Source: Hylemonella sp. (GTDB taxonomy: Bacteria > Pseudomonadota > Gammaproteobacteria > Burkholderiales > Burkholderiaceae_C). Taken from it: DNA of 64,000 nt. Every line of letters begins with the position of its first letter. Within the stretch, counting starts at the first letter, position 1. Where the stretch lies: NCBI RefSeq assembly GCF_046299695.1, contig NZ_JBKBHP010000017.1; one strand, 5' to 3'. This document shows positions 45,388 to 64,000 of the stretch, piece by piece. Both the position numbers and the translations under genes were made by a program. The notes beneath the pieces were generated by a model. That model made no database searches. It saw only the letters and a program-made list of their open reading frames with translations, and was not told the DNA's origin.

Positions 45388-45429
45388 GAGTGATAGAGGG
45401 CCAACTTTGGCCGGGTACGGTCTAGGTCA

Positions 45430-45445: not shown

Positions 45446-45537
45446 GGTTTGTGCAGGGCAGCAATTCAGCAGGAAGTGGCTCAGACGGGGCTGCAGAATG
45501 CACCATCACGGGCATCAAACTTGCACAGAGAACAGGC

Positions 45538-47292
<1,755 letters not shown>

Positions 47293-47348
47293 GGTGAGGG
47301 AATGGCGAGACGGGAAGCTGCTATAAATCGGCGACTTCCGACCTCACC

Positions 47349-48014
47349 ATGAAATTCTCCCCCTACCTCCTTGCTTTTTTTCTTCTGACAGCTTGCGCCG
47401 TTCCGCCTGTGCGTGACGCCGGCAGGCTGGCGCCTATCCTGGTGCCTGAAGACGTGCAGACCCGGGACATCGAGCTGGGGCCGCTGGTGGCGAAGATGGC
47501 ACAGGCCCGTGTCGGCATCCAGTTTGGTTTTCTATGCGAGCCTGGCGAAGCCCGACTGCTCTCGACGACACGACTGCCGGTGAGCCAGGAACAGATCAAC
47601 AAGGGATTCAAAACAGTCTTTGAATCCCTTGGGTATCGAGTTCTAAAAGAGGAGGCGGATTCCGTTTTTGGGAAAGGATCGTCCGCCGATCTTGTACTCG
47701 GCGGAACTCTGACGCAGTTTCAATCCAATCTTTGCTATCCGTTTTCCGGTCGTGCCGATCTGAGTGCTGGCAGCACTAATTCTGTCAAGGGTGCGGCCTT
47801 TGTCGAGATTGACTGGGAGCTCTATAGCGTTTCCGAGCGCAAGGTGGTCTTCCGAAGCAAGACCCAAGGCAGTTTCGAGACCAAAGAGACCGTGCGAGGT
47901 GGTTTCGAGACCATCGTTCTGAGTGCAGTGGCGGCCAGCCTCACGAATCTCGCGGCAAATCCTGCATTCCATGCCATTGCCGCCCGACCTGTAGCGCCGG
48001 CCAAGGCCATCTAA
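47349..48014 (+). CDS. Lipoprotein of unknown function
   Basis: 221 aa. Lipobox LLTAC at residues 12-16. AT-richer than the flanks. No family recognised. Confidence 0.6.
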   Translation: MKFSPYLLAFFLLTACAVPPVRDAGRLAPILVPEDVQTRDIELGPLVAKMAQARVGIQFGFLCEPGEARLLSTTRLPVSQEQINKGFKTVFESLGYRVLKEEADSVFGKGSSADLVLGGTLTQFQSNLCYPFSGRADLSAGSTNSVKGAAFVEIDWELYSVSERKVVFRSKTQGSFETKETVRGGFETIVLSAVAASLTNLAANPAFHAIAARPVAPAKAI

Positions 48015-48023
48015 CGCCTTTTC

Positions 48024-48295
48024 ATGACCAACCTTCACATCTCCGACGTCCGCCCCTTCATCCCCGCCCAGGACTTTGCGGTCTCCAAGGCCTTCTATGA
48101 GGCGCTTGGCTGGAAGGTCGGCTGGTCCGACGAGACCCTGGCCCTGCTGGAGAACGGCGGGCACAGCTTCTATCTGCAGCCCTATTACGTGAAGGACTGG
48201 GCCGATAACACCATGCTGCGCCTCACGGTGCAGGACGCGCAGGCCTGCTAAGCGCAGAGTGAACTTGTCATCGACAGTGGACGCTACCCCGATAG
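48024..48295 (+). pseudogene. Truncated paralogue of the VOC/glyoxalase-family gene at 50001..50375
   Basis: Collinear with 50001-50272. A premature TAA (48249-48251) sits where the intact copy has TAC. Homology continues about 45 nt past the stop (VIDSG.YP) and then ends. Confidence 0.65.
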
Positions 48296-48425
48296 ATGTC
48301 TTCCCGGTGAATGATGATCATGCTCAGCCGTGCTGACCGCGGCCTCATGTCGTCTGCAATAAAGCAAGGGCATCATGGAAGAGCGCATACTTCTTTACCT
48401 CAGATTCTCTCGTGCTGATAAGTAA

Positions 48426-49922: not shown

Positions 49923-50000
49923 TATAGATGATTGCAAAAGTGCGGTGTCAGGCTGTGTTGACGGGAGACTCGGCTCCTCGTCTACTTTCTTTTGTTGCAG

Positions 50001-50375
50001 ATGCTGAATCTCAAGATTTCCGACGTTCGCCCCTTTATCCCCGCCCAGGACTATGCCGTTTCCAAGGCTTTCTATGACGCCCTGGGCTGGAAGATCACTT
50101 GGTCCGGCGAGAAGCTGGCCCTGCTGGAGAACGGTGGCCACAGCTTCTATCTGCAGCCCTATTACGTGAAGGACTGGGCCGAGAACACCATGCTGCACAT
50201 CACCGTGCAGGATGCGCAGGCCTGCTACGCGCAGATCAAACCCGTGATCGACAGCGGCCTCTACCCCGGCGCGCGGGTGGCCGAGCCGCGGCCCGAGCCC
50301 TATGGCGCGCTCGTGACCTATGTGTGGGACCCGTCCGGCGTGCTGCTCCATCTGGCGCAGTGGGCACGCGGCTGA
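50001..50375 (+). CDS. VOC (glyoxalase/bleomycin-resistance) family protein
   Basis: 124 aa from ATG 50001 (MLNLKISDVRPFIPAQDYAVSKAFYDALGW...). The track start 49992 is TTG. Confidence 0.7.
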   Translation: MLNLKISDVRPFIPAQDYAVSKAFYDALGWKITWSGEKLALLENGGHSFYLQPYYVKDWAENTMLHITVQDAQACYAQIKPVIDSGLYPGARVAEPRPEPYGALVTYVWDPSGVLLHLAQWARG

Positions 50376-50549
50376 GCCTGTCGCCATGCCCTTGAGCCTG
50401 TGAGCGGGTACCTACCCCGGCAGGGCACCTCCCCAGTTTGTGGGATGTTCAGCTTCTGGCGGCCTCACTAGACTGCGCCGCTTGCATCGCAGAGGCTGCG
50501 CTGCGGCCGGGCCCGGCCAGGGCCGACATCACAACAAGGGAGCAATGCA

Positions 50550-50972
50550 ATGAAGGTGTACTGGATGGTCACGGTGCCGCGGGTGGTGCTGGGGCTGATA
50601 TTTCTGGCGGGCGCGATCGACGGTTTCTTCTTCGTCGCCACGGGCTCGCATCTGATGCACCCGCCCACTTCCGAGCGCGGCCTGGCCCTGGAAGCGGCCC
50701 TCAAGGCCACGGGCTTCTTCTGGCCCTTCATGAAAACCGTGGAGCTGGTCGGCGCCCTGTGCCTGCTGTCCAACCGCGCGCCTGCCCTGGGTCTGGCCCT
50801 GCTGTCGCCCATCATGGCGGTGGTGGTGCTGTTCCACTTCTTCCTGAACCCGCAGGGCATCCCCCTGGCCCTGCTGCTCATCGTCTGCGGCGGCTTGCTG
50901 CTGCGCGTCTATGCGCCGCGCTTTGCGCTGGCCTTCAGCTCGGGGCTGGCGTTGCAGATGCGTGCCGAGTAA
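50550..50972 (+). CDS. Small 4-TM membrane protein (DoxX-like, tentative)
   Basis: 140 aa with four hydrophobic helices. AAGGGAG RBS upstream. Confidence 0.5.
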   Translation: MKVYWMVTVPRVVLGLIFLAGAIDGFFFVATGSHLMHPPTSERGLALEAALKATGFFWPFMKTVELVGALCLLSNRAPALGLALLSPIMAVVVLFHFFLNPQGIPLALLLIVCGGLLLRVYAPRFALAFSSGLALQMRAE

Positions 50973-51020
50973 ATCGCGCGCTACGCGCGCGGATGCTCTT
51001 CTGGTTTCGGCACGCTGCGT

Positions 51021-51312
51021 TTAACTTTGCTGGCGCCAAGTTAGCCTACTCTGAAGGTGAGGCGAAGCGCTACGCGCTTCATCGGCTTACGCCGATCACG
51101 CACTTCGTGTGCAGGGGAGCATTTTGTCTACGGCCGTCCGCTATCGCGGACTTAACTTCGCGCAGCGAAGTTAGCCTGCGACGGAAGGGTGGCCCAGCGC
51201 TGCGCGCTTCCGACCTCCCTTTTAGTTTCGACCCGCTTGCGCTTAACTTTGCGGTGCAAAGTTAGTCTTTACTGGAAGGGTGGTCAGGCGCTACGCGCCC
51301 GACCACCCTTCT
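51021..51312. repeat. Three copies of an about 65-bp structured repeat (hairpin TTAACTTYGC-N-GCRAAGTTAG + GAAGG(G)TG + GCGCTRCGCGC)
   Basis: Units start at 51021, 51152 and 51243. The third unit overlaps the last codons of narK and contains the hairpin GGGTGGTC...GACCACCC. Confidence 0.65.
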
Positions 51313-52498
51313 CCGCCCAGGTTCGGGTCCAGCGGATCTGCATCACGCGCATCATCCCGAGTGCGGCCAGCGAGAGCAGGGCGAAGAGGGCGAAGCCCCA
51401 GAAGTAGGTGCCGGCGTATTGTTTGGACAGACCCATGGCGTTGGGGACCAGGCCGCCGCCGAGCGCGCCGATCTCGCCGATCATGGAGCCGGCCACGGCC
51501 GTGGTCATGGGCCAGCGCAGGGGCACGAGCTGGAACAGGGCGCCGTTGCCGGCGCCGAGCGCGGCGAAGCACAGCATCATGAGCAGGGTGGTGAGCACCA
51601 GCGAACCACCGGCCAGGCCGCAGAGCAGCAGGGTGACGGCGACGATGACGAGCACCGCGGTCAGGGTGTTGATGCCGCCCCAGTGGTCCGAGATCCAGCC
51701 GCCGAAGATGCGCAAGGCGGCACCCATGAAGGCGGCGAGCATGGTGAGCTGTCCGGCCTGCACCTTGCTCACGCCGAACTGGTCGTAGTAGTAGCTGGGC
51801 AGAAAGCTGGTCAGGCCGATGAAGCCGCCGAAGGTGATGGCGTAGATGATGGAGAAGGCCCAGCCGTCCTTTTCGAACAGGCAGGCGATGTGCTCGCGAA
51901 AGCTCGCGTGCTTGTCCACGTCGTCGGGTTCGCGGGCCAGGAAGATCATCACCAGCACGGGCAGCAGCAGGCCGATGGCGGCAATGCCGTACACGGATTT
52001 CCAGCCCCAGGCCTGCGCCAGTTGTGGCGCCAGCAGGGCCGCGATGGAGGTGCCCACATTGCCGGCACCCACCAGGCCCATGGCCAGGCCTTTGTAACGC
52101 GCGGGGAAGGAGCCCGAGCCCAGCGAGAGTGCGACGCCGAAGCTGGCGCCGGCGATGCCCAGCAGCACGCCCATGGCGAGCAGGTCGTTGAAGGTCTCGA
52201 CGAAGAAGTAGCCGTAGAGCAGGGCGATGGCGATGCCGCCCATTTCCACCAAAGTGGCGTTCTTGCGGCCGATGTACTGGGCCAGGATACCCAGGGGGAA
52301 GCGCATGAGGGCGCCGGCAAAGATGGGCACCGAGAGCATGAGCCCGATCTGCGCCGGGCTGAGGTTCAGGCTTTCCTTGATGAACGGCGCCATGGCGCCA
52401 TTGCTCACCCAGACGCCGCAGCAGTAGGTGAAATAGACGAAGGCTGCCAGCAGCGTGGGGCTGTGGCCGGCCTTGAGGAAATTGCGCAGGCTGTTCAT
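51284..52498 (-). CDS. narK: MFS nitrate/nitrite transporter (NNP/NarK family)
   Basis: 404 aa, 12 TM-like helices. GALMRFPLGILAQYIGRKN and GAGNVGTS motifs typical of NarK/NasA-type porters. Confidence 0.85.
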   Translation of the reverse strand: MNSLRNFLKAGHSPTLLAAFVYFTYCCGVWVSNGAMAPFIKESLNLSPAQIGLMLSVPIFAGALMRFPLGILAQYIGRKNATLVEMGGIAIALLYGYFFVETFNDLLAMGVLLGIAGASFGVALSLGSGSFPARYKGLAMGLVGAGNVGTSIAALLAPQLAQAWGWKSVYGIAAIGLLLPVLVMIFLAREPDDVDKHASFREHIACLFEKDGWAFSIIYAITFGGFIGLTSFLPSYYYDQFGVSKVQAGQLTMLAAFMGAALRIFGGWISDHWGGINTLTAVLVIVAVTLLLCGLAGGSLVLTTLLMMLCFAALGAGNGALFQLVPLRWPMTTAVAGSMIGEIGALGGGLVPNAMGLSKQYAGTYFWGFALFALLSLAALGMMRVMQIRWTRTWAEKGGRARSA

Positions 52499-52513
52499 CG
52501 TCGTGTCTCGTCG

Positions 52514-52609
52514 GCAAAAGCATAAAGGCGTCTATCCGTGCGCCGCAACGGGGCAGCGCACGGATAGACGCCTTTGTCTGGTGGGGAAACCGGTGCGCCT
52601 TTGCACCGG
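52514..52609 (-). promoter_or_regulatory. narK leader: second ANTAR dual-hairpin / terminator attenuator
   Basis: Minus strand: P1 CCGGTGC-AAAGGC-GCACCGG (52590-52609); P2 AGAC-AAAGGC-GTCT (52566-52579), overlapping the terminator AAAGGCGTCTATCCGTGCGC...GCGCACGGATAGACGCCTTT (52524-52576), then ATGCTTTTG. Confidence 0.7.
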
Positions 52610-52654
52610 ATCAGGGAGTTCAGGCCGGCATCGGCCTCGGGTGATCTATCTCAA

Positions 52655-52669
52655 GCAATATCCACGCCC
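52655..52669 (-). promoter_or_regulatory. Possible sigma54-like promoter ahead of the narK leader
   Basis: The minus strand reads GGGCGTGGATATTGC (GG-N10-GC spacing is correct, but there are three mismatches to TGGCACG-N4-TTGC). Confidence 0.3.
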
Positions 52670-52716
52670 AGTCCTGGGACGGATGAGTGGCCCGGTTTCA
52701 AGCCCGGGCCGCGGGT

Positions 52717-53553
52717 TCAAGCAGCTTTTTCCACGTGCCCCTGGCGCGTGTAGAGGAAGTCGATCACGGCCTTGCGGCAGTGCAGGTAGCGCGGGTCTTC
52801 GGCCAGTTCCACGCGCGAACGTGGGCGCGGCAGGTCGACCTTGAGCACTTCGCCGATGGTGGCGGCGGGTCCATTGGTCATCATCACGATCTTGTCGGAG
52901 AGCAGCACGGCCTCGTCCACGTCGTGTGTGACCATGACCACGGTGCTCTTGGTGCGGGCCACGATCTCCAGCAGCTCGTCCTGCAGCTTGGCGCGCGTGA
53001 GCGCGTCCAGCGCGCCGAAGGGTTCGTCCATCAGCAGCACCTGGGGTTCCATGGACAGGGCGCGGGCGATGCCCACGCGCTGCTTCATGCCGCCCGAGAT
53101 CTCGCCCGGGCGTTTCTGTGCGGCGTGCGTCAGGCCCACCAGGGCCAGGGCCGCCTCGGTGCGGGCCTTGAGCTGGGCCTTGTTCTCGGCCGGGGCGCCC
53201 GTGCTCTTGCTGGCGGCGCCGAAGACGCGCTCGACCGCCAGGTAGACGTTCTCGAAGCAGGTCAGCCAGGGCAGCAGCGAGTGGTTCTGGAACACCACCG
53301 CACGCTCGGGGCCGGGGCCGGCGATCTCGCGGTTGGCACAGAGCAGCGCACCGTTGGTGGGCGTGGTCAGGCCGGCGATGAGGTTGAGCAGCGTGGATTT
53401 GCCGCAGCCCGAGTGGCCGATCAGCGCCACGAACTCGCCCTTGGCCACCGTGAGGTTGATGTCGCGCAGCGCGGGGAACAGGCCCTTGGCGGTCTTGAAG
53501 GTCTGCTCGACACCCTGGATCTCGATGTACTTGGTGCTGAAAGATTCGCTCAT
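52717..53553 (-). CDS. nrtD: Nitrate ABC transporter ATP-binding protein (NrtD/NasD-like)
   Basis: 278 aa. GHSGCGKSTLLN, LSGGMKQRVGIARAL, LLMDEPFGALD. NitT/TauT family, located in the nitrate cluster. Confidence 0.85.
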   Translation of the reverse strand: MSESFSTKYIEIQGVEQTFKTAKGLFPALRDINLTVAKGEFVALIGHSGCGKSTLLNLIAGLTTPTNGALLCANREIAGPGPERAVVFQNHSLLPWLTCFENVYLAVERVFGAASKSTGAPAENKAQLKARTEAALALVGLTHAAQKRPGEISGGMKQRVGIARALSMEPQVLLMDEPFGALDALTRAKLQDELLEIVARTKSTVVMVTHDVDEAVLLSDKIVMMTNGPAATIGEVLKVDLPRPRSRVELAEDPRYLHCRKAVIDFLYTRQGHVEKAA

Positions 53554-53583
53554 GGTTCGCTCCTTGTTCTTTCGGGGGCCACG

Positions 53584-53650
53584 GTGGAACCGGCTTGGCC
53601 GGGCCGCTGGTGGCGCTCCCTTGAGGGGGTGACGCGCCCTTGGGCGCGGC
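53584..53650. repeat. REP-like intergenic repeat, copy C (between nrtB and nrtD)
   Basis: GTGGAACCGGCTTGGCCGGGCCGCTGGTGGCGCTCCCTTGAGGGGGTGACGCG. See copy B at 35727. Confidence 0.55.
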
Positions 53651-53661
53651 TCAGGGGTGGG

Positions 53662-54573
53662 CTAGTTCTTGACTTCTTCGAAGGTGAAGGCGGTGGCGAG
53701 CTTGATCAGGGCGAACTCGAGCACCAGGCCGACGATGCCGATCACGAAGATGGCGATGATGATGTTCTTGACGTTGAGGTTGTTCCACTCGTCCCAGACC
53801 CAGAAGCCGATGCCTACGCCGCCGGTCAGCATCTCGGCTGCGACGATCACCAGCCAGGCCGTGCCCACCGCCAGGCGCACACCGGTCAGCATATAGGGCA
53901 GCACGGCAGGAAAGAGAATCTTGGTGACGATCTTCCACTCGGAGAGCTGCAGCACCCGCGCCACGTTCATGTAGTCCTGCGGCACGCGCTGCACGCCCAC
54001 CGCGGTGTTGATGATCATGGGCCAGATCGAGCAGATGAAGATGGTCCAGATGGCCGCGGGGTTGGCACCCTTGAAGACCAGCAGGCCGATGGGCAGCCAG
54101 GCCAGGGGCGAGACCGGGCGCAGCAGGCTGATGAGCGGGTTGAACATGCGGCTCAGGAAGGTGAAGCGCCCGATCATGAAACCGGCCGGGATGCCGACCA
54201 GTGCGGCCAGGCCGAAGCCCAGAGCCACGCGCTGCAGCGACATCAGCACGTTCCAGCCCACGCCCTGGTCGTTCGGACCCTTGCGGTAGAACGGGTCGCT
54301 GAAGACATCGACCGCCTGTGTCCAGGTCTCAGCCGGGCTGGGGATGCTGCTGCCGCTGGTGGAGGCGATCAGGGCCCAGATGCCGACCAGCAGGGCCAGG
54401 CCCAGTACAGGCGGGACGATGCGCTGCCACAGGCCGCGCCAGTCGTAGGCCGGAGCCTTGGCAGCCGGCGGTGCTGCGGGTGCAGCGGCCGCTAGGGCGG
54501 GCCTCGGTGCAGGAGCGCTAGGCGCCGCTTCCGGCGCCAGGGCGGCTGGGGGATGAAACACGGCGCTGACCAT
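53662..54573 (-). CDS. nrtB: Nitrate ABC transporter permease (NrtB/NasE-like)
   Basis: 303 aa. Ala/Pro-rich N-terminus, then a BPD-type permease core. Confidence 0.85.
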   Translation of the reverse strand: MVSAVFHPPAALAPEAAPSAPAPRPALAAAAPAAPPAAKAPAYDWRGLWQRIVPPVLGLALLVGIWALIASTSGSSIPSPAETWTQAVDVFSDPFYRKGPNDQGVGWNVLMSLQRVALGFGLAALVGIPAGFMIGRFTFLSRMFNPLISLLRPVSPLAWLPIGLLVFKGANPAAIWTIFICSIWPMIINTAVGVQRVPQDYMNVARVLQLSEWKIVTKILFPAVLPYMLTGVRLAVGTAWLVIVAAEMLTGGVGIGFWVWDEWNNLNVKNIIIAIFVIGIVGLVLEFALIKLATAFTFEEVKN

Positions 54574-54583
54574 GATGTGCTCC

Positions 54584-55837
54584 TTAGGCCTTGATCTTGA
54601 AACCGTCGGCGTACTTCTTCGGGTCCTTGCCGTCCCAGACCACGCCGTCCATCAGCTTGCTGGTGCGCAGATCGCTCTTGGGCACGGAGATCTTCATGGC
54701 CGAGGCGACCTGCTTGTAGAGCTCGGTCTGGTTGATCTGCTTGGCCACGGCCAGATAGTCCGGGTGCTCCTTGAGCAGGCCCCAGCGCTTGTGCTGCGTC
54801 AGGAACCACATGCCGTCGGACAGGTAGGGGTAGTTCACCGCGCCGTCGTTGAAGAACTTCATGTGGTCCGGGTCGTCCCAGGTCTTGCCCATGCCGTTCT
54901 GGTAACGGCCCAGGATGCGCTGGTTGATGGCGTCGACGCTGGTGTTGATATAGGACTTCTCCGCGACGACCTCGGCCATCTTGAGCTTGTTCTGCAGGCC
55001 GGTGTCGATCCACTTGCTGGCTTCGAGCACAGCCATCATCACGGCACGCGTGGTGTTGGGGTACTTCTTGGTGAACTCGGCCGTGGTGCCCAGCACCTTT
55101 TCAGGGTGGTCCTTCCAGATGTCCTGCGTCGTGTTGGCCGTGATACCGATGCCGTCCATGATGGCGCGGTGGTTCCAGGGTTCACCCACGCAGAAGCCGT
55201 CCATATTGCCCACGCGCATGTTCGCCACCATCTGGGGCGGCGGCACGGTGATGAGCTTGGCGCCGGAGAGCGGGTTGATGCCGGCGGCGGCCAGCCAATA
55301 GTGCATCCACATGGCGTGGGTACCGGTGGGGAAGGTGCCGGCAAAGGTGTATTCGCGCTTGTTGGCCGCCATGAACTTGGCCAGCGAGGGGCCATCGACC
55401 GCGCCCTTGTCGGCCAGGGCCTTGGACAGGGTGATGGCCTGGCCGTTGTTGTTCAGGGCCATGAGAACGGCCATGTCTTTCTTGGGACCGGAGATGCCCA
55501 GGTGCACGCCGTAGACCAGGCCATAGAGCACGTGGGACATATCGAGTTCACCGTTGACCAGCTTGTCGCGCACGCCGGCCCAGCTGGCTTCCTTGCTGGG
55601 AATGATCTTGACCCCGTACTTCTGGTCGATGCCCAGCACCGAGGCCATCACGACGCTGGCGCAGTCGGTCAGCGGGATGAAGCCGATCTTCACTTCCTTC
55701 TTCTCGGGAGCGTCGGAGCCCGCGGCGTACACGGCGGCACGCAGGGCGGGGGTCAGGCCCACGGCGCCGACGGCGGCGGCTTGCAGGACGGTGCGGCGGG
55801 ACGGACCGGCGGCGTTGGCGATCACGGGGTCTTGCAT
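54584..55837 (-). CDS. nrtA: Nitrate-binding periplasmic protein (NrtA/CmpA/NasF family)
   Basis: 417 aa. Tat-like signal SRRTVLQAAAVGAVG. IGFIPLTDCASVVMA is typical of NrtA. Confidence 0.85.
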   Translation of the reverse strand: MQDPVIANAAGPSRRTVLQAAAVGAVGLTPALRAAVYAAGSDAPEKKEVKIGFIPLTDCASVVMASVLGIDQKYGVKIIPSKEASWAGVRDKLVNGELDMSHVLYGLVYGVHLGISGPKKDMAVLMALNNNGQAITLSKALADKGAVDGPSLAKFMAANKREYTFAGTFPTGTHAMWMHYWLAAAGINPLSGAKLITVPPPQMVANMRVGNMDGFCVGEPWNHRAIMDGIGITANTTQDIWKDHPEKVLGTTAEFTKKYPNTTRAVMMAVLEASKWIDTGLQNKLKMAEVVAEKSYINTSVDAINQRILGRYQNGMGKTWDDPDHMKFFNDGAVNYPYLSDGMWFLTQHKRWGLLKEHPDYLAVAKQINQTELYKQVASAMKISVPKSDLRTSKLMDGVVWDGKDPKKYADGFKIKA

Positions 55838-55870
55838 GATGAACTCCAGTTACGGGCTAAAAGCGAAGCA

Positions 55871-55981
55871 CAAACAAAAAACGGCACCCATTCCACCGCC
55901 GCCCATTCGGGTCGCGGGGAATGGACGCCGTTGTCCAGTAATGTCTCGAAGAGACCTGGGTCAGGCCGCCTTTGGCCTGAC
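55871..55981 (-). promoter_or_regulatory. nrtA leader: third ANTAR dual-hairpin / terminator attenuator
   Basis: Minus strand: P1 GTCAGGCC-AAAGGC-GGCCTGAC (55960-55981); P2 GGAC-AACGGC-GTCC (55923-55936), overlapping the terminator AACGGCGTCCATTCC...GGAATGGGTGCCGTT (55880-55932), then TTTTTGTTTG. Confidence 0.75.
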
Positions 55982-55994
55982 TTGGTAGGCATCA

Positions 55995-56010
55995 AGCAGA
56001 TACCGTGCCA
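55995..56010 (-). promoter_or_regulatory. Sigma54 (-24/-12) promoter for nrtABD
   Basis: The minus strand reads TGGCACGGTATCTGCT (TGGCAC-N5-cTGCt). Confidence 0.6.
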
Positions 56011-56153
56011 GGCTGTGCTTGGGTCTGGATTTTTAAAGAGAAGTCATTTAAAAACAATGACTTGCATGTAATGCACCAGGCTAGCCAGGGTCCTGGAAGC
56101 TGGTGCGCAGGCACTTTTATTGTGCGTTGCACCATGAGGTGCGCGGGAAGACC

Positions 56154-57365
56154 TCAGAGATAGTCAGACATGGCCAGCACGGTCTTGGCCACATCCACCA
56201 GGCGCCGGCCCTGGTTCATGGCGGTCTGGCGCAGCATCTTGTAGGCCTCGTCCTCGCTGAGCTTGCGCGAGGCCATGAGCAGGCCCTTGGCGCGCTCGAT
56301 GACCTTGCGCTCGTTGAGCGCGGCGCGCGCGGTTTCGAGCTCGTCGCTCATGTTCTGCAGCCGGCGCGACTGCTCCTGCACCATGCCCAGGATGGAGCGT
56401 TCCAGGTGCGGGCCGAGCAGGGCCGGGGGCTCGTTGCCGGCCTCGCCGGCCTGACGCTGCAGCGCGTCCAGGATGGCCTGCTGGTCACGCAGATCGGCAT
56501 GGGCCTGGGCGATGCGTTCGTCGCAGAGCAGGCGCAGATTGGCGGCCAGCTGGTCCTCGAAGCTCTTCATGGCGTCGATGCGCAGCGTGCAGGCCTCGTA
56601 CCAGGCGGGGCTGGCATTGGGGTCCAGCGTGCCGCTGGCGTTGGCTGAGGCCACGCGGCGCATGCGTTCCAGCGTGGCGACGGCGTCCGCAGGCAGGCAG
56701 GCCAGCCAGGCGCTGCGCACGGCCTCGTCGGAGAAGTCGGTGAAAACCTGCAGGCAGGCCTCCTGCGCCTCGATCAGGTGCTGCCATTGCTGGCGGTGGG
56801 CGGTGTCAATCTGGCCCGAGGCGTAGGCCGCACCGCCGAAGGCGCGCTCCTGGCCCGCGTATTCCTTGCCCTGCAGGAAATGGAAGAGCGCCACGAGCGC
56901 GCGCGAGATCTTGGGGTCGGTGGCGCTGTCGGCGGCCTCGAAGACCACGTTGAGCAGGCCGGCGATCAGGCGGGTGTAGGTGGCTGTGGCCTCTTCGGCA
57001 GGCTGGGTCTGACTGGCAACACGCTCGCGCAATGCGGGCAGGCCTTCGAGCGCATGCAGCACGAAGGCGATGCGACTGAACAGGCGCGCGCCGTTGCGCA
57101 CGCGGCGAGCGTCGGTGTCCAGGGCTTCCAGCCGGGTCAGCACCTGGGCCTGCACGGCCTCGCAATCGGCCACCTGCTGCTGCAGCGCATCGGCGAAACG
57201 CGCGCCGCGCGAGGCGAGGTAGACGTTGGAGATGCCGCGTTCGCGCTGCAGCGCATGCACGAGGCGGCCGATCACGCCGACCAGCTCGCTGGTCAGCGCA
57301 AGGTGCTCCAGCTCGCTGATCTCGCACTGGCGGGCGGCGACGAGGAAGTTCAGTCCGGCATTCAT
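56154..57365 (-). CDS. nasR: Nitrate/nitrite-responsive antiterminator NasR (NIT sensor domain + ANTAR RNA-binding domain)
   Basis: 403 aa. NIT-type N-terminus (LVHALQRERGISNVYLAS...). C-terminal ANTAR (LNERKVIERAKGLLMASRKLSEDEAYKMLRQTAMNQGRRLVDVAKTVL). Confidence 0.85.
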   Translation of the reverse strand: MNAGLNFLVAARQCEISELEHLALTSELVGVIGRLVHALQRERGISNVYLASRGARFADALQQQVADCEAVQAQVLTRLEALDTDARRVRNGARLFSRIAFVLHALEGLPALRERVASQTQPAEEATATYTRLIAGLLNVVFEAADSATDPKISRALVALFHFLQGKEYAGQERAFGGAAYASGQIDTAHRQQWQHLIEAQEACLQVFTDFSDEAVRSAWLACLPADAVATLERMRRVASANASGTLDPNASPAWYEACTLRIDAMKSFEDQLAANLRLLCDERIAQAHADLRDQQAILDALQRQAGEAGNEPPALLGPHLERSILGMVQEQSRRLQNMSDELETARAALNERKVIERAKGLLMASRKLSEDEAYKMLRQTAMNQGRRLVDVAKTVLAMSDYL

Positions 57366-57507
57366 GGTGGTGTGGCGTTTTTATGATTCAGCAAAGGCGG
57401 GTTCTGTGGCGTTCGTTACGCAGGCACCGGATCGGGGCATGGTGCACGCCATCGATACATCAGGCGGCTCGTGCCCAGTCATCAGCCGGACGCATGGCAT
57501 AGAATCA

Positions 57508-57616
57508 GCCTTGCTCCGGGGTGTCGTCCGCGTAAGCGGAGGGCTGAGATGGTGGGACGTGATCCCTGTACCGAACCCGTGAACTTGACTCGGATCATAC
57601 CGACGTAAGAAGAGCT
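57508..57616 (+). promoter_or_regulatory. TPP (THI-box) riboswitch aptamer
   Basis: GCTCCGGGGTG / P3 hairpin TCCGC-GTAA-GCGGA / GGCTGAGA / ...ACCCGTGAACTTGACTCGGATCATACCGACGTAAGAAGAGC. This matches the conserved CUGAGA and ACCC..GAAC.UGA.C.GG.UAAU.CC.GCGUAGG cores, with P5 TCGG/CCGA and P4 CTT/AAG. Not verified with a covariance model. Confidence 0.75.
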
Positions 57617-57686
57617 GTCTGCAGGCCTCACTCGTCCTGCCACACCTTTCGGAGCACATGTGCCGGGCACAGAAAGAAAGGACGTC

Positions 57687-58793
57687 GTGGCAGAGATTCT
57701 CCAAGCATCGTCGATCAGCGCAGCCGGACCCGTGCCGGAGCTGCTGGCTTTCATCGCGCGCGACGATGCGAGCGAGGCGGACTTCAATGCCCTGGCCCTG
57801 CGCCTGTTTGCGCACCAGTTCCAGCACAACACCGCTTTCCAGAAGTTCTGCCAGCAGCGCGGGCGCACGCCGCGCACCGTGAAGCACTGGCACGAGATTC
57901 CGGCCGTGCCCATCAATGGCTTCAAGGACCTGACGCTGAGCTGCGTGCCCACGGAGCGGTGCGCGCGCGTCTTCATGACCAGCGGCACCACGCGCGGCGA
58001 CGTCAAGGGCCGGCACTGGCATCCGGACCTCGCGGTCTACGACCTGTCAATGACGCGCAACTTCCGCGCACGTTTCATGGCGGGGCGCGACAGGATGCGC
58101 ATGGGGGTGCTGTTTCCGGACGAGCAGCTCATGCCCCATTCCTCGCTGGCGCATTACCTGGCGCTGGCGCTGCATCATTTCGGTACGCCCGACAGCCGCT
58201 ATTACCTGGACGGCACGGGCCTGCAGATCGACGCGCTGTGCGCCACGCTGGAACAGGCGCAGAAGAGCGGCGAGCCCTTGGCCCTGCTGGGCGCGAGCTA
58301 CAGCTTCGTGCACCTGTTCGACGCCTTGCAGGCGCGCGGCCTCAGATTCCAGCTGCCCGCGGGCAGCCGCCTGCTCGACACCGGCGGCTTCAAGGGCCAG
58401 TCGCGCGAGATGGACATGGAGGATTTCTATGGCCAGCTCGCGTCCACCTTCGGTGTGCCGCGCAGCGCCTGCATCAATATGTATGGCATGACGGAGCTGA
58501 GCACACAGTTCTATGACGCGGGCAATGCCACGCTACCCGCCGTGAAGTCCGGCCCGCACTGGATCCGCACGCGCGTGCTGGACCCGCTCACGGGCCAGGA
58601 GGTCCCCAAGGGCGAGCGCGGCATCCTGGCGCATACTGATCTGGGCAACTACAACGCGGTCACCACCATCCTGACCGAAGACGTGGGCATCGCCGTCGAG
58701 GGTGGTTTCCTGCTGCTGGGCCGCGCCCAGGGTGCACAGGCCAAGGGCTGCTCGCTGGCGGTGGACGAGTTCCTCAAGGCGGCGCGCGCATGA
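57687..58793 (+). CDS. LuxE-family acyl-protein synthetase / adenylate-forming enzyme
   Basis: The FMTSGTTRG nucleotide-binding motif, DTGGFKG and YGMTE resemble LuxE-type acyl-protein synthetases. The track start is GTG 57660; GTG 57687 has an AAAGGA RBS 5 nt upstream. Confidence 0.7.
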   Translation: MAEILQASSISAAGPVPELLAFIARDDASEADFNALALRLFAHQFQHNTAFQKFCQQRGRTPRTVKHWHEIPAVPINGFKDLTLSCVPTERCARVFMTSGTTRGDVKGRHWHPDLAVYDLSMTRNFRARFMAGRDRMRMGVLFPDEQLMPHSSLAHYLALALHHFGTPDSRYYLDGTGLQIDALCATLEQAQKSGEPLALLGASYSFVHLFDALQARGLRFQLPAGSRLLDTGGFKGQSREMDMEDFYGQLASTFGVPRSACINMYGMTELSTQFYDAGNATLPAVKSGPHWIRTRVLDPLTGQEVPKGERGILAHTDLGNYNAVTTILTEDVGIAVEGGFLLLGRAQGAQAKGCSLAVDEFLKAARA

Positions 58794-60238
58794 GGGTCCA
58801 GGCTGCTTATCTGCCGGGTCTGAAGCCGGATGAGCTCTCATGGCACACGCTGGCGTTTGGCAGGGAGCCCCGGCCGCTTGAGGTGCAGGTGCCGCAACTC
58901 ACTCCCGGACAACTGCAGGCACTCGCGCGGCATGTACGTACAAAGGGCGGGGCACAGATCCGCGCCTTGAGCGTGTCGCAGATCATCGCGGCCATCGACC
59001 AGGCGATTGCGCGCCTGCTCGACACACGGGACCCGTACCGCCAGCAACTCGACCACCTGCTACCTTTGATCACCGGCTTCGACGCCGAGATGGTGCGCCT
59101 GGGCCTCAACGCCTACCTCAAGACCTTCCGCGCGCCGCAGCTGCAGCGCTTCGTGGCCGAGGACTTTGCCAACCCCAGGCTGCTCGACGAATTCCAGCCG
59201 GCGCTCAAGGGCGGCATGGCGCGCGCGCTCGGTCCCGAACTGCTGGTCCATGTCTGGGCCGGCAATGTGCCGGGCCTGCCGCTGTGGAGCCTGGTCTGCG
59301 GCCTGCTGGTCAAGGCGCCGGCCCTGGGCAAGACAGCCAGCGCCGAACCCCTGTTTGCCGCGCTCTTCGCGCGTCTGCTGGCCGAGGTGGAGCCATGCCT
59401 GGCCGATGCGCTGGCCGTGGTCTGGTTCAAAGGCGGCGACACGGCCAGCGAACGCGCGCTCTATGCCGAGGCCGACACCGTGCTGGCCTACGGCGGTAAC
59501 GAGACCCTGGCTGCGCTGCGGCAACAGCTGCCCGTGACCACGCGCTTCCTGCCGCACGGGCACAAGCTCAGCGTGGGCCTGGTTTCGGCCGCCGCGCTGG
59601 ACGCGCAGCACCTGCCGGCCGTGGCACGCGCTGCGGCACTCGATGTGGTGCGCTACGAGCAGCAGGGCTGCTATTCGCCGCACACCTTTTACGTGGCCCG
59701 CGGTGGCCGCGTGAGCCCGCGCGAGTTTGCACTGGCCCTGGCCGGCGAGCTCTCGGCCCTGCAGCACAAGTTCGCGCGCCGCGCGCTGAGCCTGGAGGAG
59801 GCGGCCAGTGTGGCCGGCTGGCGCCAGGGGCAGGAGTTCAAGGGCCAGGACGGCTCGGTGGAGCTGATCGGCGATGCGCAAGCCAATTGGGCCGTGGCCT
59901 ATGCCGAGGCCGCCGGCCCGCTGCTGCCCTGTGCGCTCAACCGCACGGCGCAGGTGCAGGCCGTGGACGCGCTCGACGAGACCTTGCCCCTGCTGGCCGC
60001 GCAGCGCGACTTGCTGCAGACCGTGGGCATCGCTGCCTCACCCGAGGAGCTGCACGCGCTGGCCGAAGGCCTGGGCCGTGCCGGCGCCACACGCATCTGT
60101 GCCTTGGGCCAGATGACTGCGCCCGAGGCGGGCTGGCACCACGACGGGCGCTTCAGCCTGCTGGACCTGGTGCGCATGGTCGAGATCGAAGCTTCGGCCG
60201 AGGCGGCGGCCGAGCCCTACGCACGGTACCGGGATTGA
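58790..60238 (+). CDS. LuxC-family acyl-CoA/acyl-protein reductase (aldehyde-forming)
   Basis: 482 aa ALDH-like fold protein. VWAGNVPGLPLWSL...YGGNET...YEQQGCYSP (catalytic Cys context) as in the LuxC family. ATGA overlap with the preceding gene. Confidence 0.7.
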   Translation: MRVQAAYLPGLKPDELSWHTLAFGREPRPLEVQVPQLTPGQLQALARHVRTKGGAQIRALSVSQIIAAIDQAIARLLDTRDPYRQQLDHLLPLITGFDAEMVRLGLNAYLKTFRAPQLQRFVAEDFANPRLLDEFQPALKGGMARALGPELLVHVWAGNVPGLPLWSLVCGLLVKAPALGKTASAEPLFAALFARLLAEVEPCLADALAVVWFKGGDTASERALYAEADTVLAYGGNETLAALRQQLPVTTRFLPHGHKLSVGLVSAAALDAQHLPAVARAAALDVVRYEQQGCYSPHTFYVARGGRVSPREFALALAGELSALQHKFARRALSLEEAASVAGWRQGQEFKGQDGSVELIGDAQANWAVAYAEAAGPLLPCALNRTAQVQAVDALDETLPLLAAQRDLLQTVGIAASPEELHALAEGLGRAGATRICALGQMTAPEAGWHHDGRFSLLDLVRMVEIEASAEAAAEPYARYRD

Positions 60239-60239
60239 G

Positions 60240-60998
60240 ATGAGCACCTCGCCCTTCCTCGACATGCGCCAGGTGAGCTATACCTTCCCGGGCTGGCCGC
60301 CCGTGGTGCAGCGTGTGGACTGGGACATCGCGCCCGGCGAATTCCATTGCCTCGTGGGTCGTAGCGGCTGCGGCAAGACCACGCTGCTCAAGCTGGCGGC
60401 CGGCCTGTTGCGGCCCGACGAGGGCACGGTGCAGCTGCAGGGCCGGCCCCTGCCCGAGCCCGGGCCGCAGATCGGCTTCGTGTTCCAGCAGCCCACGCTG
60501 CTGGATTGGCTCAGCGTGCGCGACAACGTGCTGCTGCCGCTGAGCCTGCAGGGCCACGTCGGTGCCGACGACGTGGCGCGCGCCGAGGCGCTGCTGGCCC
60601 AGCTGGGCCTGGGCGCGCATCTGCAGCATCGCCCGCGCCAGCTCTCGGGCGGGCAGCAGAGCCGGGTGGCGATTGCGCGTGCGCTGCTGCCCGGGCCCTC
60701 CATCCTGCTCATGGACGAGCCCTTCGCCGCGCTCGATGCCCTCACCCGCGAGGAGCTGCAGGACGCGCTGCTCGCGGTCTGCCGTGAACGCGGCACACCG
60801 GTGTTTTTCGTGACCCATGACATCGCCGAGGCGGTCTACCTGGCCGACCGGGTGGCCGTGATGGATGCGGGTCGCATCCGCCACGACGTGCGCGTGGCGC
60901 TGCCGCGTCCGCGCGTTCAGGATGTGCGCTACAGCGCCGCCTTCAATGCCATCTGCGCCGAGTTGCGGCACGCCATGGACGGGGAGGGCGCCGTATGA
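60240..60998 (+). CDS. NitT/TauT-family ABC ATP-binding protein (ThiZ-like)
   Basis: 252 aa. GRSGCGKTTLLK, LSGGQQSRVAIARAL, LLMDEPFAALD. Confidence 0.85.
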   Translation: MSTSPFLDMRQVSYTFPGWPPVVQRVDWDIAPGEFHCLVGRSGCGKTTLLKLAAGLLRPDEGTVQLQGRPLPEPGPQIGFVFQQPTLLDWLSVRDNVLLPLSLQGHVGADDVARAEALLAQLGLGAHLQHRPRQLSGGQQSRVAIARALLPGPSILLMDEPFAALDALTREELQDALLAVCRERGTPVFFVTHDIAEAVYLADRVAVMDAGRIRHDVRVALPRPRVQDVRYSAAFNAICAELRHAMDGEGAV

Positions 60999-61753
60999 GA
61001 TATCCCCGCCTGCTGGCCCTTGCACTTCTGGTGCTGCTCCTGCTCGCCTGGGAATGGGCCGTGCAGGCCTTCAAGTTCTCGCCGCTGGTCCTGCCTGCGC
61101 CCAGCGTGATCGGCGCCGCGCTCGGCCGCGGCCTGGTCACGGGCTACCTCTGGCCGCACATCGCCCAGACCCTGCTGGAACTGGGACTGGGCTTGGCCCT
61201 GGGCGTGTTGCTGGGTTTTGCCGGCGGCGTGCTGCTCGGTGAATCGGCCTTGCTGCGCCGCGTGTTCATGCCCTATGTGGTGACCAGCCAGGTCGTGCCC
61301 AAGCTCGCGCTGCTGCCGCTCTTCATCGTCTGGTTCGGCTTCGGCACCACGCCCACGGTGGTGATCACGGCGCTGATCTGCTTCTTCCCGCTGCTGGAGA
61401 ACACGCTCACGGGCATCGCGCAGGTGGATGCGGCGCGCCTGGAGCTCTTCCGCATGCTGGGCGCCACACGTGCCCAGACCCTGTGGCGGCTCAAGCTGCC
61501 GGCCAGCCTGCCCGCCATCCTGGCCGGCCTGCGCGTGGCCGTGGTGCTGGCGCTCGTTGGGGCCGTGGTCGGCGAGTTCATCGGCGCCAGCCAGGGCCTG
61601 GGGGCGCTGATCATCGCCGCCCAGGGCTCCATGGACACGGCGCTGATGTTCGCCGTGCTGCTGCTCATCACCATCATCGGCCTGCTGCTTTACGAGGCCA
61701 CCTTGTGGCTGGAGCGCAAGCTGCTGGCGACCTATTCCTTTTCTACGAACTGA
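60995..61753 (+). CDS. NitT/TauT-family ABC permease (ThiX-like)
   Basis: 252 aa BPD-type permease. ATGA overlap with the ATPase gene. Confidence 0.85.
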   Translation: MRYPRLLALALLVLLLLAWEWAVQAFKFSPLVLPAPSVIGAALGRGLVTGYLWPHIAQTLLELGLGLALGVLLGFAGGVLLGESALLRRVFMPYVVTSQVVPKLALLPLFIVWFGFGTTPTVVITALICFFPLLENTLTGIAQVDAARLELFRMLGATRAQTLWRLKLPASLPAILAGLRVAVVLALVGAVVGEFIGASQGLGALIIAAQGSMDTALMFAVLLLITIIGLLLYEATLWLERKLLATYSFSTN

Positions 61754-61763
61754 GGACGACACC

Positions 61764-62759
61764 ATGAAACGACACACCCTGCGTGCCCTGCTGGCCCTGG
61801 CCGCGCTGAGCCTGCTCGGGGCCACGGCCAGCGCCCAGGACGCCAAGCTGGAGAAGATCACCATCGCCAGCTGGGGCGGGCCGATCTCCGAAGTGACCAA
61901 CCTGCTGGTCGAGCCCGACAAGGGCTTCTTCCGCGCACGCGGCATCGAGCTGGTCTACATGCCGGGCACGGGCGGCGGCGATGCGGTGCGCAACCTGCTC
62001 AGCGGCCAGGCCGACGTGGCCTTCACCGACCCCGGTTCCTTCTACGCCGCGCTGGACAAGGGCGAGAAGCTGCGCGCCATCTACGACATCTATCCGCAGA
62101 ATGTCTTCAACGTGGTCTCGCTCAAGAGCGCCAACATCCGCAAGCCCGCCGACCTCAAGGGCAAGAAGATCGGCGTCTACAGCCTGTCCAGCGGCACCCT
62201 GGCCAACCTGCAGCTGCTGCTGAACCAGGCTGGCCTGAGCACCAAGGACGTGACCATCGTCGTCACCGGCCTGCTCAATTTCGCGCCGCTGATGCAGGGC
62301 CAGGTGGACGCCACCGCCGCCACCGACACCGGCCTGCTCGTGGCCCGGGCCCGCGGCGTGGGCGAGGTCAACGTGATGGAGGTGCGTGACTCGCTCAATC
62401 TCTCCAGCGACCTCTTCGTGGTGCGTGAGGAGACCTACCAGAAGCGCAAGGACGTGCTCAAGCGCTTCCTCGCCGCCTACCGCGACAGTGCGCAATGGAT
62501 GATGGACCAGCCGGAAGAGGCCGCGAAGCTGGCCGTCAAGCGCGCCATCAATGGCCAGAACGAGGCCGTGAACCTGGAGGTGATCAAGCTGCGCAATGCC
62601 ACTAGCGTCTCGCCGCTGACGCAGAAGAACGGCCTGGGCGCCATCAACGTCGACATGCTGCAGAAAGGCGCCGTGGCCTGGAAGCAGATCGGCCTGATCG
62701 AGCGTGATCTCGACATGAAGGCCGTGGTGAGCCAGGACCTGTTGCCGGGCAAGAAGTGA
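61764..62759 (+). CDS. NMT1/THI5-like (SsuA/ThiY-type) periplasmic binding protein
   Basis: 331 aa. Signal peptide MKRHTLRALLALAALSLLGATASA, then the two-lobe pattern typical of the NMT1/SsuA family (ITIASWGGPISE..., GKKIGVYSLSSGT). Confidence 0.75.
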   Translation: MKRHTLRALLALAALSLLGATASAQDAKLEKITIASWGGPISEVTNLLVEPDKGFFRARGIELVYMPGTGGGDAVRNLLSGQADVAFTDPGSFYAALDKGEKLRAIYDIYPQNVFNVVSLKSANIRKPADLKGKKIGVYSLSSGTLANLQLLLNQAGLSTKDVTIVVTGLLNFAPLMQGQVDATAATDTGLLVARARGVGEVNVMEVRDSLNLSSDLFVVREETYQKRKDVLKRFLAAYRDSAQWMMDQPEEAAKLAVKRAINGQNEAVNLEVIKLRNATSVSPLTQKNGLGAINVDMLQKGAVAWKQIGLIERDLDMKAVVSQDLLPGKK

Positions 62760-62761
62760 TC

Positions 62762-63529
62762 ATGAAATTCCAGGGCCAGGTCATCCTCGTCACCGGCGCC
62801 AGCCGCGGCATCGGCGCGGCCATCGCGCGCGCCTTCGCGGCCGAGGGCGGCTTCGTGGTCGTCAACTACCTGCGCAACGAGGCCGCGGCCGAGGCCGTGG
62901 TGGCGGACTGCAAGGCCGCCGGTGGCGACGCCTGGGCGATCCGCGCCGATGTGAGCGACGTGGCCCAGGTACAGGCCCTGGTGGCGCAGGTGCAGTCCGA
63001 GCTGGGGCGCATCGACGTGCTGGTCAACAACGCCTTCGCGCCGTATCGCTTTGATCCCGAGCAGCGCAAGCGCTTTTGGGAAACGGACTGGGCCGACTAC
63101 CAGGCCCAGTTCGAGGGGGCGGTGCGCACGACGCATCAGGTGACGCAGGCCGTGCTGCCCGGCATGCGCCAGCGCGCCCAGGGCTGCATCATCAACCTCG
63201 CCAGCGACCTGGTCGAGCGGCCCGTGGTGCCCTACCACGACTACGCCACGGCCAAGTCCGCGCTCGTGGGTTACTCGCGCAACCTCGCGGCCGAGCTGGG
63301 CCCCCTGGGCATCCGCGTGAACTGCGTGGCGCCGGGCCTGGTCTACCCGACCGACGCAAGCCGGGCCACCAAGGAGGACGTCAAGGAAGCCATCGTGGCC
63401 CAGACCCCGTTGCGCCGCATCGCGCGGCCCGAAGACGTGGCCGGTCCCGTGCTCTTCCTCGCTTCGGACTGGAGCCGTTTCATGACGGGGCAGGTGCTGG
63501 TGGTGGACGGTGGCCTCGTGATGCGCTGA
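62762..63529 (+). CDS. Short-chain dehydrogenase/reductase (FabG-like)
   Basis: TGASRGIG cofactor motif, NNAF and YxxxK (YATAK). The track start 62756 is GTG; the ATG is at 62762. Confidence 0.85.
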
Positions 63530-63576: not shown

Positions 63577-64000
63577 ATGACAGATGTGGCACCGCTGATC
63601 CTTGGCATCGAATCCTCCTGCGACGAAACGGGCGTGGCCCTGGTTGAATCGCAGGCCAGCGGTGTGCCCAAGCTGCTCTCGCATGCGCTCTACAGCCAGA
63701 TCGAGATGCACCAGGCCTATGGCGGTGTGGTGCCCGAGCTGGCCAGCCGCGACCACATCCGCCGGGTGCTGCCGCTCACCCAAACGGTCATGGCCGAGGC
63801 CGGCAAGTCGCTGCAAGACATCGACGTCGTGGCCTATACACGCGGCCCGGGCCTGGCGGGCGCCCTGCTGGTGGGCGCCGGCGTGGCCTGCGCCCTGGGT
63901 GCGGCCCTGGGCAAGCCCGTGCTGGGCGTGCACCACCTCGAAGGCCATCTGCTCTCGCCCTTCCTCAGCGTCGATCCGCCGGAGTTTCCCTTTGTGGCCC
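63577..64000 (+). CDS. tsaD: tRNA N6-adenosine threonylcarbamoyltransferase TsaD (5' part; continues beyond the window)
   Basis: My translation gives [23 protein letters not shown]...[13 protein letters not shown]...[11 protein letters not shown]...HHLEGH. Open-ended, so absent from the ORF track. Confidence 0.85.

Follow-up and report, generated by a model that had tools for sequence, protein, structure and literature searches.

Why should homologues of the fatty-acid reductase of luminous bacteria be placed under the control of thiamine? The question is raised by a stretch of 64,000 nucleotides from contig NZ_JBKBHP010000017.1 of Hylemonella sp. (assembly GCF_046299695.1), referred to here as the window. 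In it, a predicted thiamine pyrophosphate (TPP) riboswitch is followed on the plus strand by six genes, which encode a LuxE-like acyl-protein synthetase, a LuxC-like acyl-thioester reductase, the ATPase, permease, and binding protein of an ABC importer, and a short-chain dehydrogenase/reductase (SDR) (Table 1). Many bacteria rely on salvaged fragments of thiamine, a vitamin whose synthesis is expensive. An initial annotation, made from the sequence alone, proposed that the operon imports an oxidised thiamine precursor and reduces its carboxyl group. Our analysis indicates that the operon very probably serves the salvage of some thiamine-related carboxylate. With modest confidence we further propose a TPP-repressed import and stepwise reduction (COOH -> CHO -> CH2OH) of a thiamine-derived acid, most likely 4-amino-2-methylpyrimidine-5-carboxylate (PCA), which would be converted to hydroxymethylpyrimidine (HMP).

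Conservation of the riboswitch and the operon

The Rfam model RF00059 matched the leader of the operon over its full length (model positions 1-105) with 54.4 bits and an E-value of 7e-08, and this was the sole Rfam match in the whole window. The THI-box seen in the initial annotation is therefore significant, and its place upstream of the genes stands, but the distance of 70 to 80 nt given there does not; the 3' end of the aptamer lies about 60 nt from the GTG at 57687, the likely start of luxE. Because the score was marginal against the gathering score of 54.3 bits, and because Rfam at that threshold reported the aptamer in five of eight sampled loci and missed three clear ones (Polaromonas, Comamonas, and Thauera), we tested the conservation of the element and built a covariance model of our own, R1, from 21 orthologous upstream regions. 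R1 scored 84 bits on the window site (E 3e-20). On the aptamers of relatives, RF00059 itself scored up to 82.7 bits.

One genome per species was scanned, which yielded 497 loci with relatives of the LuxC-like protein, and the best 80 of the 497 (59-90% identity) were examined. They came from Comamonadaceae, Achromobacter and Bordetella (Alcaligenaceae), Thauera, Azospirillum/Roseomonas, and Rhodospirillales, and all 80 held the six genes in identical order as far as the contigs reach (some end early). With R1, a single aptamer was detected in the window and in 76 of these loci, each time on the strand of the operon and immediately 5' of it (E 4e-23 to 9e-15). The remaining four loci, which gave no match, end inside luxE at a contig edge, so the aptamer was present in 76 of the 76 loci that retain upstream sequence. 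A strict regular expression recognised the THI-box in 66 of the 80 loci, and its misses were either contig-edge cases or loci with thiD between the aptamer and luxE. Conservation of the THI-box upstream of related operons, which the initial annotation had proposed as a check on its reading, was thus found wherever it could be scored, and also in versions of the operon from other phyla (see below). In three Variovorax loci (L060, L063, and L069) about 220 nt separate the aptamer, at about 6550-6635, from the estimated start of luxE downstream of it, compared with 30-80 nt elsewhere.

Across 78 aligned aptamers, 97.2% of the pair cells contained standard pairs and seven pairs were changed on both sides, while pairing was 50% or less in a control with slid 3' partners; the alignment was fitted to the model and is somewhat biased toward the structure. 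An earlier MAFFT alignment of six aptamers, of low quality where P3 varies, gave way to another, A2. The presence of the aptamer in every testable locus, together with compensatory changes in its helices, indicates that the link between riboswitch and operon is not a matter of chance. Binding of TPP and control of expression by the aptamer are predicted on this basis.

The minimum free energy (MFE) fold of the leader predicts a hairpin in which CCUUUC pairs with the Shine-Dalgarno sequence GAAAGG, and CUGCCAC pairs with GUGGCAG, including the GTG start. Directly 3' of the anti-Shine-Dalgarno segment lies GGAGC, which is the complement of the P1 5' strand GCUCC. The combined motif, C[CU]U1-3C(A/G)GGAGC, occurs downstream of 66 of the 78 aptamers, and the support for this expression platform is comparative, not thermodynamic. 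The arrangement fits a translational OFF switch operated by TPP, since an open P1, without TPP, could capture the GGAGC segment and thereby free the ribosome-binding site. The GTG at 57687 is likely to be preferred over the alternative GTG as the luxE start; a Shine-Dalgarno sequence, AAAGGA, is found at 57677-57682, 5 nt upstream of it. When the plus strand was scanned with the promoter consensus, no full sigma-70 site was found. A weak -10 box was recognised by eye a few nucleotides 5' of the aptamer, and TAnAAT-like hexamers occur at the equivalent place in other loci. A terminator scan found no intrinsic terminator.

The six open reading frames (ORFs) are tightly packed, with 4-nt overlaps or gaps of 1-10 nt. 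ATGA overlaps join luxE to luxC at 58790 and the ATPase gene to the permease gene at 60995; the gap between luxC and the ATPase gene is 1 nt, and that between the genes for the permease and the binding protein is 10 nt. This layout and the six gene families were described correctly in the initial annotation, as judged from the ORF list of the window and from Pfam and NCBIfam.

The LuxE-LuxC-SDR unit and its link to thiamine genes

The LuxE-like protein matched PF04443 with 85.3 bits (gathering score 24.9) and the LuxC-like protein matched PF05893 with 280.8 bits (gathering score 21). Among solved structures, both matched only the LuxC-LuxE complex of Photobacterium, 7xc6, and only remotely. 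In the alignment with 7xc6_E (E 4e-18) the C-terminal acylated cysteine of the LuxE-like protein is in register, with KGCSL in both proteins, and in the alignment with 7xc6_A (E 4e-17) the catalytic cysteine of the LuxC-like protein is likewise aligned (QQGCYS against QQACFS). The GCS motif of LuxE was present in all loci and the nucleotide motif TSGTT in nearly all, and the cysteine motif of LuxC was present in 81 of 82 loci. The cysteines for acyl transfer and for reduction are thus conserved, as a carboxylate-reducing pair would require. Scores against the NCBIfam equivalogs for luminescence were far below the cut-offs, 69.3 bits against 550 for the LuxE-like protein (NF052244) and 82.6 bits against 750 for the LuxC-like protein (NF052251). 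The pair has the residues that define the mechanism of the Lux fatty-acid reductase, but the two proteins are not orthologues of it. The ORF list and Pfam showed no luxA, luxB, or luxD in the operon, which, with the equivalog scores, agrees with the earlier statement that this is not a bioluminescence operon.

In RefSeq, the LuxC-like genes of three loci (L083, L084, and L085) carry the GO term bioluminescence, and their LuxE-like genes go under the names long-chain fatty acid--CoA ligase or acyl-CoA synthetase. Judged by the context of the genes, both annotations are probably systematic errors.

A wider search, by tblastn of plasmid records and by a protein search seeded with the LuxC-like protein of Lactiplantibacillus, revealed that the transporter is the variable part of the operon. 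A megaplasmid of Pantoea dispersa has the aptamer (71.7 bits), the LuxE-like and LuxC-like genes and the SDR gene, with no transporter, and a plasmid of Priestia megaterium carries the complete set of six genes together with an aptamer (49 bits, E 1e-06). On a plasmid of Lactiplantibacillus plantarum (L085, 10,287 bp) the aptamer (67.6 bits) is followed by genes for an NCS2 permease, the LuxE-like and LuxC-like proteins, and the SDR. The same order follows tandem aptamers in Leuconostoc (L089; 3240-3331 and 3417-3514, 74.9 and 78.5 bits) and an aptamer in Bifidobacterium, and in Modestobacter the aptamer (49 bits) precedes LuxE-LuxC-SDR-NCS2. A third Leuconostoc aptamer (10355-10448, 82.7 bits) stands before thiW-thiM a few kilobases downstream. 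The NCS2 permeases resemble the nucleobase carrier PbuX, with scores under every equivalog cut-off. Because the trio of LuxE, LuxC, and SDR is constant while the transporter is swapped or absent, the trio under TPP control appears from these comparisons to be the invariant unit, and the module to be conserved in four bacterial phyla.

In the L. plantarum plasmid, the riboswitch and the NCS2-LuxE-LuxC-SDR genes are the sole metabolic cargo, and a LuxC-like protein 98% identical to that of this plasmid occurs on 65 contigs of Limosilactobacillus fermentum (P0405). The module may thus travel among lactic acid bacteria as a mobile cassette for vitamin salvage.

In several lineages the operon is embedded in clusters of thiamine genes, in accordance with the thiamine connection drawn initially. 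In nine loci (Ramlibacter, Rhodoferax, and a metagenome-assembled genome of Burkholderiales) the aptamer lies about 1 kb further upstream, and thiD (PF08543, 3e-94) stands between it and luxE; in two more loci thiD is convergent, immediately after the SDR gene. Ramlibacter-type loci carry thiE or thiO-thiG-thiE after the SDR gene. One locus (L081) reads thiD-luxE-luxC-ABC-permease-binding protein-SDR-thiE, and three others (L034, L042, and L053) continue after the SDR gene with thiO, thiG, and thiE, of which thiE was identified by tblastn and thiO and thiG by eye. In Paenibacillus the order is thiS-thiG-thiF-thiD-thiE-NCS2-luxE-luxC-SDR, and no aptamer was found within the locus stretch examined.

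The SDR provided a further link to thiamine. It has the TGxxxGIG and YxxxK motifs, and its only NCBIfam match above a cut-off was NF006393/PRK08642 (303.8 bits against 292). PRK08642 was the only strong NCBIfam match for all module SDRs tested, those of Pantoea (278) and L. plantarum (276) lying just below the cut-off; OarX of Rhodococcus scored 435.3. When 1.84 billion cluster representatives were searched with the SDR, a small top group above 220 bits stood apart from the general SDR background, and it included a Rhodococcus SDR that is 47% identical to that of the window (E 3e-75). The Rhodococcus locus (L086, 6917-9132) consists of a TPP aptamer (69.8 bits), the SDR gene, and a gene for a flavin mononucleotide (FMN) monooxygenase of the NtaA/DmoA family (PF00296; TIGR03860, 548 bits). 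To judge from its sequence, it is the oarX-fmnO operon described in PMC11223231. In this locus the aptamer, at 6917-7010, overlaps the called oarX start at 7001, and the start was probably miscalled.

In a rough neighbour-joining tree, without bootstrap, twelve SDRs linked to LuxE and LuxC formed one clade, sister to an OarX clade of Rhodococcus, Dietzia, and Stenotrophomonas whose members are FmnO-linked or stand alone. The SDR of the initial annotation is thus of the short-chain family, as was said, but it is not anonymous: it belongs to the OarX family, which has been tied to TPP riboswitches and thi genes since 2002 (Rodionov et al. 2002; PMC11223231). The family is not always linked to a riboswitch, because the OarX-clade SDR of Stenotrophomonas mori (L088, 7001-7762; 452 bits to PRK08642) stands alone without thi neighbours, and no TPP aptamer was found at that locus at E<0.01.

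Candidate pathway and the choice of substrate

We propose that the operon works as follows. When TPP is low, the riboswitch would leave the ribosome-binding site of the first gene open, and when TPP is bound, P1 would close and the downstream anti-Shine-Dalgarno segment would sequester the Shine-Dalgarno sequence and the GTG start. The ABC system would import a thiamine-derived carboxylate, most likely PCA, by means of its ThiY/THI5-family binding protein. The LuxE-like enzyme would adenylate the acid and hold the acyl group on its C-terminal cysteine, and the LuxC-like enzyme would accept the acyl group on its own cysteine and reduce it with NAD(P)H to the aldehyde. The OarX-family SDR would then reduce the aldehyde to the alcohol, HMP, which would enter thiamine synthesis through ThiD and ThiE. 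The analysis shows the conserved aptamer, the gene families with their catalytic residues, the synteny, and the linkage to thi genes; which acid is the substrate, in what direction and order the three enzymes act, which cofactor they use, and how the riboswitch operates are inferred.

The three products of thiamine oxidation that come into question, PCA, 4-methylthiazole-5-acetate (MTA), and thiamin acetic acid, have been described as orphans; PCA is documented as arising from thiamine breakdown, with no fate known for it, and thiamin acetic acid is known to be formed by oxidation in bacteria and in mammals (PMC11223231). Their reductive salvage by OarX was hypothesised by Oliveira-Filho, Rodionov and Hanson 2024, who, after five negative tests, concluded that OarX may act on a derivative of them instead (PMC11223231). 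That paper notes only occasional 'acyl-CoA synthetase' neighbours of oarX and never mentions LuxC, LuxE, or luciferase (PMC11223231). Because RefSeq uses the same name for LuxE-like genes, these neighbours may be LuxE-like genes.

The transporter gives an indication of the substrate. The best NCBIfam matches of the ATPase were nitrate, taurine, and sulfonate ATPases, all below the cut-offs, and the permease is TauC/SsuC-like, also below the NCBIfam cut-offs. As in ThiXYZ systems, an ATPase and a permease of the NitT/TauT type share one TPP-riboswitch operon here. The binding protein has a signal-peptide-like N-terminus. A profile of 11 orthologues of it matched THI5 (3e-11), ThiY 3ix1 (6.5e-09), and TauA (1e-06) in the PDB, where ThiY 3ix1 ranks behind 3qsl, 4nmy, and THI5. 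The comparisons favour the pyrimidine acid PCA over the thiazole acid, because the binding protein resembles THI5 and ThiY more closely than it does TauA, because the modules of Gram-positive bacteria use a PbuX-like nucleobase permease, and because Leuconostoc has a separate riboswitch-thiW-thiM unit for the thiazole beside the module. The suggestion of the initial annotation that an oxidised thiamine precursor is the substrate is supported to the extent that the transporter types point to a pyrimidine acid.

Several observations weigh against the reduction of PCA under TPP control. The aptamer of the window, taken alone, is marginal and barely reaches the Rfam gathering score, and the folding energy of the leader was no better than that of shuffled sequence (z 0.39). 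As a single sequence, the binding protein is only remotely similar to ThiY 3ix1 (E 1e-05). ThiD and ThiE also serve de novo synthesis, so that linkage to their genes indicates a role in thiamine metabolism and not which moiety is salvaged. None of PCA, MTA, and thiamin acetic acid supports growth of Corynebacterium glutamicum, which has oarX-fmnO, and it is the thiazole genes (thiOSGF, tenI, and thiM) beside which oarX is more often found (PMC11223231). The growth tests could have failed because they lacked an importer and the LuxE and LuxC steps; in C. glutamicum only an oarX-fmnO operon is described (PMC11223231). The operon in the window has genes for all three, with the LuxE-like protein to activate the acid at the expense of ATP and the LuxC-like protein to form the aldehyde.

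The company that OarX keeps with thiazole genes would suit a pathway in which MTA is imported and reduced to hydroxyethylthiazole (HET) by the same machinery, and so would the thiO and thiG genes directly after the SDR gene in L034, L042, and L053. However, no module examined contained thiM, the gene for HET kinase, the transporters have either a ThiY/THI5-family binding protein or are PbuX-like nucleobase permeases, and the placement of thiW-thiM in a riboswitch unit of its own in Leuconostoc suggests different jobs for the two units; we think that the thiazole acid is unlikely. The reduction of imported thiamin acetic acid back to intact thiamine seems to us very unlikely. This known oxidation product (PMC11223231) does retain the pyrimidine ring, by which a ThiY-like protein could bind it, but a PbuX-like nucleobase permease is an improbable carrier for a bicyclic cation, and salvaged thiamine needs no thiD, the gene most often joined to the module. 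The thiamine binding protein TbpA, moreover, was not among the PDB matches of the binding protein; TbpA belongs to a different binding-protein family.

A small but real chance is left to some other thiamine-related compound, either a further-modified derivative of PCA or MTA, such as the authors of PMC11223231 suspect for OarX, or a carbonyl other than the LuxC product as the substrate of the SDR, in which case there would be no simple line from acid to alcohol. Against this stands the trio of LuxE, LuxC, and SDR, which is invariant despite varying transporters, the pattern expected of consecutive steps, and the conserved acyl-carrying cysteines argue for a genuine reduction of a carboxylate. 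Hardly credible, finally, is an ordinary operon for a fatty-acid reductase (making fatty alcohol) or for sulfonate or nitrate uptake that lies by a riboswitch-like sequence and has no role in thiamine metabolism. Such a reading could draw on the Pfam families, named after the luminescence fatty-acid reductase, on the RefSeq names fatty acid--CoA ligase and acyl-CoA reductase, on the nitrate ABC system adjoining the operon, and on the marginal Rfam score. It is opposed by the aptamer in all 76 testable loci and across four phyla, with covariation, by the embedding of the module within thi operons, and by LuxE and LuxC scores far under the equivalog cut-offs. A fatty-acid or bioluminescence role is effectively refuted by these comparative data.

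The preferred reading, reduction of PCA to HMP, can be extended to OarX as a whole, though we regard the extension as tentative and rather doubtful. OarX-family SDRs may be dedicated reductases of 4-amino-2-methylpyrimidine-5-carbaldehyde to HMP, a last step shared by two front ends that generate the aldehyde. One would be LuxE and LuxC, with the pyrimidine carboxylate as substrate; this is the type of operon described here, which occurs in Pseudomonadota, Bacillota, and Actinomycetota. The other would be the NtaA/DmoA-type FmnO, acting on the methylene bridge of thiamine or of aminomethyl, formylaminomethyl, or sulfonomethyl pyrimidines. Members of the NtaA/DmoA family hydroxylate a methylene adjoining N or S and release an aldehyde, and for this reason FmnO could act on such bridges. 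The extension would explain why C. glutamicum, for which only oarX-fmnO is described, cannot use PCA, and, if true, it would assign functions to OarX, FmnO, and the non-luminous LuxC/LuxE clade together.

TPP-controlled salvage operons, OarX, and the idea of reductive salvage are already known. The claim of an undescribed pathway therefore appears to stand for the LuxE/LuxC part and the complete module, and not for the concept of reduction, which was published in 2024 (PMC11223231). In the searchable literature, no paper besides the OarX paper (PMC11223231) links LuxE- or LuxC-type families to thiamine or to a TPP riboswitch. LuxE and LuxC as the activating and first reducing steps, the full module of importer and enzymes, and its spread over four phyla and small plasmids thus appear to be undescribed. 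The module is present in the culturable and tractable Comamonas testosteroni, Pantoea dispersa, Priestia megaterium, and Leuconostoc, which makes the two-decade-old question of OarX directly testable. If the proposal is true, it would provide the first physiological role for a large clade of non-luminous LuxC/LuxE homologues and correct their annotation, and models of how microbial communities exchange B1 would gain a new vitamer.

Surroundings of the operon and comparison with known systems

Table 1. Features of the operon and of the neighbouring nitrate cluster (positions in the 64-kb window).
Feature	Position	Strand	Evidence
Possible -10 box TAGAAT	57497-57502	+	By eye, few nt 5' of aptamer; weak
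TPP riboswitch aptamer (THI element), predicted	57507-57628	+	RF00059 54.4 bits; own model R1 84 bits
Expression-platform hairpin, predicted	57637-57693	+	MFE fold and comparative motif
LuxE-family acyl-protein synthetase	57687-58793 (alternative GTG 57660)	+	PF04443 5e-24
LuxC-family acyl-thioester reductase, aldehyde-forming	58790-60238	+	PF05893 2e-83
ABC ATPase, NitT/TauT type	60240-60998	+	PF00005 4e-34
ABC permease	60995-61753	+	PF00528 (BPD_transp_1) 6e-31; TauC/SsuC-like
Periplasmic binding protein, NMT1/THI5/ThiY family	61764-62759	+	PF09084 1e-49
OarX-family SDR, proposed aldehyde reductase	62756-63529	+	NCBIfam NF006393/PRK08642 303.8 bits
NirB-like reductase	42801-45539	minus	
MFS transporter	51284-52498	minus	
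NrtB-like permease	53662-54573	minus	
NrtA-like NMT1_2 binding protein	54584-55837	minus	
NasR-like NIT+ANTAR regulator	56154-57365	minus	

A nitrate/nitrite assimilation cluster occupies 42801-57365 on the minus strand, divergent from the operon. It brings a second ABC system of the NitT/TauT type next to the thiamine-linked one and lies outside the control of the riboswitch. An ORF on the plus strand at 45451-47292 encodes a fusion protein, with a PP2C phosphatase domain at the N-terminus joined to a Ser/Thr protein kinase domain. Downstream of the operon, a tsaD-like gene (tRNA threonylcarbamoyladenosine synthesis), recognised by eye only, begins 50 nt past the SDR stop and runs from 63579 to 64000 on the plus strand; no terminator-like site was seen in the interval between the two genes.

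The luminous LuxC-LuxE system of 7xc6 resembles the one described here in that the two families are encoded side by side with translational coupling and the acyl-carrying cysteines are kept, and the ATP-dependent mechanism from acid through acyl-enzyme to aldehyde is expected to hold here. Unlike in luminous bacteria, the operon is without luxA, luxB, and luxD, is coupled to an SDR and an importer, and is predicted to be controlled by TPP, and the substrate is presumably a small heteroaromatic acid and not myristate. The conversion of acid to aldehyde to alcohol at the expense of ATP and NADPH is also the chemistry of carboxylic acid reductase (CAR) with an aldehyde reductase. CAR, however, is one polypeptide with several domains and depends on a phosphopantetheine arm, whereas here two separate proteins with cysteine thioesters would do the work.

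Among thiamine systems, the ThiXYZ/ThiY importer of formylaminopyrimidine is likewise a TPP-riboswitch ABC importer with an NMT1-family binding protein, and it feeds the pyrimidine branch via ThiD, but the binding protein here is related to ThiY only remotely and is probably not its orthologue. As for salvage by TenA and YlmB, neither tenA nor ylmB is present here, and the proposed chemistry is reductive (COOH -> CH2OH) instead of deformylation and hydrolysis. OarX-FmnO shares with the operon in the window a FabG-like SDR of PRK08642 behind a TPP riboswitch, clustering with thiD, thiE, and thiOSG, and the same published hypothesis, the reduction of carboxyl fragments of thiamine, has been put forward for it. 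The two differ in the partners of the SDR, which are the LuxE-like and LuxC-like proteins and a transporter here and FmnO there.

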